From Eledone cirrhosa (Eukaryota): a stretch of DNA of 24,465 nt. The stretch covers positions 1-24,465 of the forward strand of contig CAXHJY010000334.1 in assembly GCA_964016885.1 (NCBI GenBank), written 5' to 3'. Under the pieces are notes generated by a model that was not told the origin of the DNA, did not search any database, and saw only the letters and a list, made by a program, of their open reading frames with translations. A program made the position numbers and the translations under genes. Shown piece by piece: positions 11,541-12,125 of this stretch. Positions within the stretch are counted from its first letter, which is position 1, and each line of letters starts with the position of its first letter.

Positions 11541-12125
11541 AGTGGTCGCGCATTCTAAGGCAGATACGTACATATGAGGTGTAGTTCTCAGGGAGATTCA
11601 GTGTGAGCAAATGTATGACAACGCTAGTTCATTGAATTAATGGTACATAACATTTCTTTTTTTTACGCGCAACCTGTTCTACAAATTAACATGGAAGGTG
11701 TCCGCGCATTCTAAGGCAGACATGTACATATGAAGTGTAACTCTCAGGGAGATTCAGTGTGACAACACTAACTAATTGAATTAATAGTACATCTGTTATT
11801 CGTGACGAGATACCTGTTCTCGAAATTAACATGGATGGTGTCTGAGCATCCTATTGCAGATACGTTGATATATATTGCCCTTCTCAGGGAGATTCAGTTT
11901 AAAATATTTTACGACACAGCTGGCCCATTGAATTATATGTACATCACATCTCTACCTCTGACGAGATTCTAACTCTCCAGATTAACTTGGATGGTGCCTG
12001 ACCATACTACTGCAAACATGTACATATATAATAAAGCTCTCAGGGAGATTCAGCGTAAGAGATTTTATGACAACGCCTATCAATTAAATGAATGGTGTAC
12101 AGTAGATCTGTTTTCTGCTCCGTGA
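11541..12125. repeat. Diverged tandem array, ~4 units of 156/140/156 bp (module C)
   Basis: Exact cores at 11586, 11742, 11882 and 12038. Confidence 0.92.

Follow-up and report, generated by a model that had tools for sequence, protein, structure and literature searches.

A 16-bp word of a tRNA-derived SINE is kept in short tandem arrays in the octopus Eledone cirrhosa

SINE-derived tandem arrays are already known from squamates, whose SINE-derived satellites (sSat), with tandem units 70-290 nt long that each represent a portion of a tRNA-related SINE, arose independently at many loci (PMC10702118). In satellites of another kind, those with the CENP-B box or the Meloidogyne Box motifs, a motif of 16-17 bp sits in diverged monomers of ~150-170 bp (PMC3694981). 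Octopuses carry tRNA-derived CORE-SINEs named OR1 and OR2 (PMC4824008, PMC4758252). The locus described here has likenesses to each of these systems, and the part of it that appears new is a 16-bp motif kept against the decaying spacers of SINE arrays.

The window analysed is a stretch of 24,465 nucleotides that makes up an entire unplaced contig (CAXHJY010000334.1) of a 3.0-Gb genome. A 16-nt core, TCTCAGGGAGATTCAG, has 10 matches at up to 3 mismatches across the window, every one on the plus strand, where 0.01 are expected in shuffled sequence. The first-pass annotation had described this core as exact in nine of ten units, with one variant at 10246, and the mismatch search bore this out, the match starting at 10246 carrying a single change. 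The units that hold the cores derive from a tRNA-derived SINE of ~325 bp, lying on the minus strand, and are tandem copies of ~156 bp from its interior.

These units form three modules. Module A (7813..8294, minus strand) has three tandem units with cores at 7860, 8016 and 8177, spaced 156 and 161 bp apart. Module B (10126..10680, minus strand), near-identical to A, comprises a SINE 3' end and three tandem units with cores at 10246, 10402 and 10563, again 156 and 161 bp apart. Module C (11485..12125, minus strand) comprises a SINE 3' remnant and four tandem internal-segment units, C1 to C4, whose cores (11586..11601, 11742..11757, 11882..11897 and 12038..12053, all exact and on the plus strand) follow one another at 156, 140 and 156 bp; the first of them is the reverse complement of SINE positions 186-201. 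Over the whole window a 156-bp spacing holds for four of the seven core intervals, within a range of 140-161 bp, and the arrays tolerate indels of 5, 11 and 16 bp. Modules A and B each amount to a complete SINE copy in which the internal piece has been triplicated: the SINE 3' end adjoins a palindrome (7666..7717 in A, 10033..10084 in B), clearly so in B, and a decayed SINE head on the minus strand follows the last unit, at 8296..8400 in A (68% over 105 nt) and at 10682..10786 in B, where it comprises the tRNA-like part and the domain after it (66% over 105 nt, E 4e-5). A SINE head was also searched for past C4 of module C and not found.

Compared unit by unit, modules A and B are 95-99% identical, so that the window offers seven independent units rather than ten. 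Contigs assembled from three runs of one sample span module C, with no differing letters in the long pieces listed for X1 and X2 and 0-1 in X3, and read depth over A and B in the sample contigs is 1.4-2.1 times that over C, which fits a true duplication of A and B; the sample may be the source of the assembly, which makes it no independent check of module C or of this depth. One probe for a second haplotype of the contig found none.

The parent element was recovered from the genome at large. A 15-mer of the core has 7,556 exact matches genome-wide, against 1 for a reversed control, and alignment of these matches yields an element of ~325 nt with a tRNA-like head and the core at positions 186-201. 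The element is short, non-coding and dispersed, two of its 15-mers having 7,556 and 3,990 exact matches with unrelated flanks, and its consensus, built from 90 copies, opens with A-box-like and B-box-like words. It may resemble CORE-SINEs such as octopus OR1/OR2, which have a ~60-bp central domain homologous to the MIR CORE, in being an octopus-type tRNA-headed SINE with a CORE-like central domain; the 16-bp core is a separate thing, placed some 80 bp 3' of that domain. The window units are 61-68% identical to the SINE consensus.

Other repeats share the window. A second SINE type, at 6788-7059, 9160-9427 and 20150-20399 (minus strand), has the head and following domain of the parent element (75-79% over ~137 nt) with a different tail. 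Positions 4521-6170 (plus strand) are likely the 3' end of a Penelope-like retroelement, with a long C-rich tail, an AATAAA near 6126 and a 67-aa frame that ends QTHTPPGLN, has no Pfam match and is presumably GIY-YIG-like. The same stretch holds a hammerhead-like CTGAAGA...GAAAC (about 6059-6083), predicted to form a three-way junction (z -1.0). A further dispersed repeat has left a fragment at 14750-15030, which is ~77% identical to many loci (1,568 candidates). A Penelope origin of the modules themselves, suggested by a C-rich tract, found no support.

Like sSat, the modules consist of head-to-tail units that come from part of a SINE and are shorter than it, and A and B recall the sSat variant in which both SINE ends enclose the repeats (PMC10702118). 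They differ in having only 3, 3 and 4 old units in all, short of the sSat working threshold of at least 4 middle monomers (PMC10702118); some other core loci have 8-25. They differ also in the core itself: the main text of PMC10702118, from which the word 'conserved' is absent and in which 'binding' occurs once, in background, appears to report no short motif kept against decaying spacers. With the CENP-B and Meloidogyne satellites (PMC3694981) the window shares a motif of similar length in diverged monomers of similar size, but as dispersed short arrays and not long centromeric ones: there are 3-4 units here, and periods run from 29 to 181 bp across loci instead of being fixed. Unlike the Meloidogyne boxes, the core lies away from the monomer junction in the window, and it lies near the junction, by rough scoring, in several other arrays. 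In the literature searched, whose scope stopped short of subscription journals, repeat databases and most supplements, the core 14-mer had no occurrence in either orientation and cephalopod SINE-derived arrays of this type no report; PMC13652810 appears to offer only general motif enrichment at loop anchors.

The first-pass annotation had proposed selection on the core, to be checked by unit alignment, per-column conservation and a tree. A maximum-likelihood tree of the ten window units and the SINE consensus has a length of 1.92, and parsimony on it counts 1 step in the 16 core columns, against a mean of 1.58 per column in the 130 others. With columns taken as independent, none of 200,000 permutations yields so quiet a 16-column window anywhere, whether or not CpG columns are included. 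With the duplicate units accounted for on the tree, the invariance of the core remains well outside what chance would give.

Nor can this conservation be put down to low mutability, the core being ordinary in dispersed copies. Among copies chosen without the core (the first 90 of the 3,990 matches to a different 15-mer, all on contig 1, 88 of them aligned), core identity is 0.886, as compared with 0.84-0.89 in CpG-free flanks; the core is exact in 13 of 86, and parts of the head-proximal domain exceed 0.9. A genome-wide surplus of old copies with an intact core was rejected on the segment between the core and the anchor words, whose identity is 0.80 in 88 core-picked and 0.81 in 90 anchor-picked copies (p=0.44). 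Taken over their whole length, the core-picked copies are less identical (0.75 vs 0.81, p=0.001), mostly on the anchor-adjacent side, where the comparison is biased. Thus, the constraint on the core is specific to arrays and not a property of the SINE at large.

Such arrays are numerous: the core has been multiplied in tandem, with different breakpoints, at more than 50 separate loci. A search for pairs of the exact core 14-mer 134-164 bp apart has 123 matches, and the 100 of them that were listed represent 55 loci on 19 contigs. Three control 14-mers of the SINE, put through an identical search, yield 10 matches from 7 loci, 3 from 1 locus and 33 from 6 loci, with single-copy survival similar (19/90 for the core, 15/90 and 25/90 for two controls). 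The excess of core pairs over the nearest control has p=3e-5 if scaled linearly with single counts and p=0.026 if squared, and over the distal control p=6e-11. Among the matches listed, core-pair loci are denser on small chromosomes, with 3 on the 443-Mb C1 and 5 on the 31-Mb C24; control pairs show a similar bias, and the density may follow that of the SINE.

We inspected 29 core-pair loci, picked by eye for variety, together with locus L226. Their periods include 29, 31, 35, 38, 45/67, 53, 67, 70, 76 and 107-181 bp, the smallest core-keeping unit being 29 bp, their breakpoints differ and some of their spacers are non-SINE, from which we infer that they arose separately. Units in these arrays were located by the core at up to 4 mismatches, and leaving out the searched pair and near-duplicates reduced them from 79 to 68, of which 46 have an alignable flank. 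In these 46 the identity of the extra cores is 0.936 and that of the flank 0.736, the change falling sharply at core positions 1 and 16, for arrays that were ascertained through the core and extra units that share ancestry with the ascertained pair. As in a homotypic cluster, several copies of a motif are kept above their flanks. Of the units located by flank alone, 15 of 20 have at least 15 of the 16 core letters, a level reached by 37 of 94 units in dispersed copies (p=0.006); when the test is made symmetrical, within 615 bp, the difference is small, 9/88 vs 5/90. Young homogeneous arrays (29-76 bp) carry degenerate cores and are uninformative on selection. SINE-derived arrays without the core also occur, among them a 45-bp satellite of at least 90 units from SINE positions ~140-175 (L071-L090, G000 C1:31.824-31.830 Mb). 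Constraint on the core, which the first-pass annotation had read from the window as selection, is supported more widely than the window alone could show.

The reading we favour, with moderate confidence, is that the core is a SINE-borne putative binding site for a sequence-specific protein of the host, kept in homotypic clusters. Single SINE copies would carry the candidate site neutrally and decay, local tandem duplication would turn it into clusters, and those clusters that act as cis-regulatory or chromatin elements would retain the site while their spacers decay. A comparable history is reported for the Helitron-derived MSL sites of Drosophila miranda, transposon-derived homotypic clusters of a transcription-factor site in which a mobile element is said to have spread the site and the host to have kept the useful ones; here, by comparison, retention appears only after local tandem multiplication. 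By eye, none of the EBF, NF-kB, STAT, AP-2, CTCF and ZNF143 motifs spans the 16 bp of the core. From the 16-bp length one may guess that the putative reader is a long C2H2 protein with many fingers, which is plausible in that C2H2 zinc-finger genes are expanded in octopus (PMC12988792). Ten arrays viewed over 20 kb have LINE fragments near them, three also have coding frames of anoctamin, ankyrin or C2H2 type, and no gene family common to their surroundings emerged from the 100 of 235 candidate frames scanned.

The surroundings of the modules would suit such a putative binding-site cluster: next to the cores of the window are two conserved blocks and a second motif, present twice in opposite orientations, an arrangement that may be cis-regulatory-module-like. 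This second motif, AAGGGAGRTCACTCT, is dispersed, its 14-mer having 295 matches against 6 for a control, and two inverted copies of it make up the palindrome of module C (11383..11434), as they do those of A and B. Two short blocks, CGTTCTGTTGGTC and AATTAGATTAATA (11331..11369, plus strand in C), precede the palindrome and with it are common to C and A/B; the C-rich tract before them diverges and aligns poorly. The sites of AAGGGAGRTCACTCT have mostly unrelated flanks, with an A at the preceding position, which was no part of the search, in 27 of 30, a pattern that would be expected of a binding motif rather than of a transposon end. Indeed, a transposon end was rejected, as the arms occur singly amid those flanks. 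No further palindromic copy of the pair was seen among 24 loci viewed outside the window, and Rfam gave 0 matches on seven loci that bear the motif.

At L226 an inverted motif pair is followed by SINE-tail units, and L384 has motif-like sites near its array; most arrays viewed are without the motif. The L226 stretch (6640-7530; G000 C24:25.447 Mb) is window-like in its order of a C-rich stretch, GTTGGTCA, the inverted pair and antisense SINE-tail units, whose cores have 0-2 mismatches, one unit lacking the core. Elsewhere AAGGGAGRTCACTCT lies in small unique islands that recur at intervals of 1.4-4 kb among simple repeats, in many cases close to TGACGT-like words (G000 C17:31.88 Mb, C18:32.5 Mb, C20:21.75 Mb, C24:14.61 Mb and C698; L201-L215, L225, L227-L229). 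A related word, AAGGGCCRTAACTCT, occurs at the unrelated loci L325, L352, L354, L360, L371 and L373 and is probably part of another repeat.

The strongest competitor, to which we give a minor but real chance, is that the core marks a hotspot of breakage, recombination or insertion and may itself have been duplicated as a target site. On this view it would favour tandem duplication and be renewed through short gene conversion, and the host would gain nothing from it. SINE homology stops 1-16 bp from the core in several arrays and in none of 87 dispersed copies, by a permissive scoring that makes the comparison qualitative, and young short core arrays are numerous. There is a precedent in nematodes, where conserved boxes at monomer junctions have been proposed to promote satellite rearrangement (PMC3694981). 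However, the junction in the window is about 55-95 bp from the core, both flanks of which are homologous, and yet along a tree of length 1.9 the core has stayed invariant. Nor is the core refreshed in dispersed copies, and a duplicated target would be expected to decay as its flanks do.

Constraint at the level of RNA, with the arrays serving in transcripts as repeated small-RNA targets or protein-binding sites or as sources of small RNA, seems to us improbable. Sixteen nucleotides would suffice for extended pairing, and the adjacent palindrome folds as a 52-nt hairpin (z -10 and -6); yet its arms are found singly elsewhere, the units share no miRNA-like hairpin on either strand, their folds being weak and inconsistent, and across three cases the orientation of the cores relative to nearby coding exons varies. 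An Rfam scan of 4400-12200 to E 10 placed nothing at the cores, and its other matches were weak and came down to microsatellite artefacts. A miRNA cluster was rejected as the units fail pre-miRNA hairpin folding on both strands. The 24,410 characters searched from the supplements of the octopus miRNA paper PMC9699675 gave 0 matches. Read-through by Pol III from the SINE head into the hairpin was discarded too, T runs preceding the hairpin on that strand.

A neutral account, in which the arrays are plain SINE-derived minisatellites and the core seems conserved as a CpG-free stretch and through choice of the most striking window, is already largely refuted and in our judgement quite unlikely. 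It has in its favour that the core is an ordinary CpG-free stretch genome-wide and that the arrays were ascertained through it; against it stand the permutations over all windows, the far rarer pairing of three control words and the keeping of the core in flank-found units.

The first-pass annotation had further seen the motif next to the core decay with distance from the palindrome in module C. The three motifs it listed are present, in C2, C3 and C4, but the series omits the nearest unit, C1, which differs as well. C3 and A1/B1 keep the ancestral GAGCA, the supposedly undecayed motif carries a derived GCGCA, and A1/B1, the units nearest the palindrome, differ most from that motif within their modules. 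Identity to the SINE consensus is flat with position (C1 63, C2 68, C3 66 and C4 61%); the polarised decay is mis-rooted, and distal units are no further from the SINE than proximal ones. C1 and C2 are 69-78% identical to the A/B units and C3 and C4 59-66%, a step that is compatible with younger proximal units, not proof of them, and C3 and C4 split from the remaining units at 44% bootstrap. Growth from the palindrome end, as the annotation had it, is no more than possible, and the link it drew from the period to nucleosome length goes without support: the period, 140-161 bp here and 29-181 bp at other core arrays, is set by duplication breakpoints in the SINE. That a nucleosome-phased array extends from the palindrome end is thus a very slim prospect, favoured by the 156-bp period in four of seven intervals and the nearness of C1 and C2 to the A/B units, and opposed by the tolerated indels, the spread of periods elsewhere, the absence of a SINE-consensus gradient and weak tree support.

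A broader and more tentative proposal, less probable to us than not, is that regulatory or chromatin-organising elements have arisen in the octopus time and again through tandem multiplication of the 16-bp site of a major SINE, at dozens to hundreds of loci and for one lineage-specific zinc-finger reader. Such a SINE-seeded network would be switched on only by clustering and would be invisible in the conservation of single copies. Were the core instead a breakpoint hotspot, this would account for the particular positions from which SINE-derived satellites begin. A defined 16-bp word, more than 50 loci and a signal of selection that appears only in clusters make the question one that is open to experiment.
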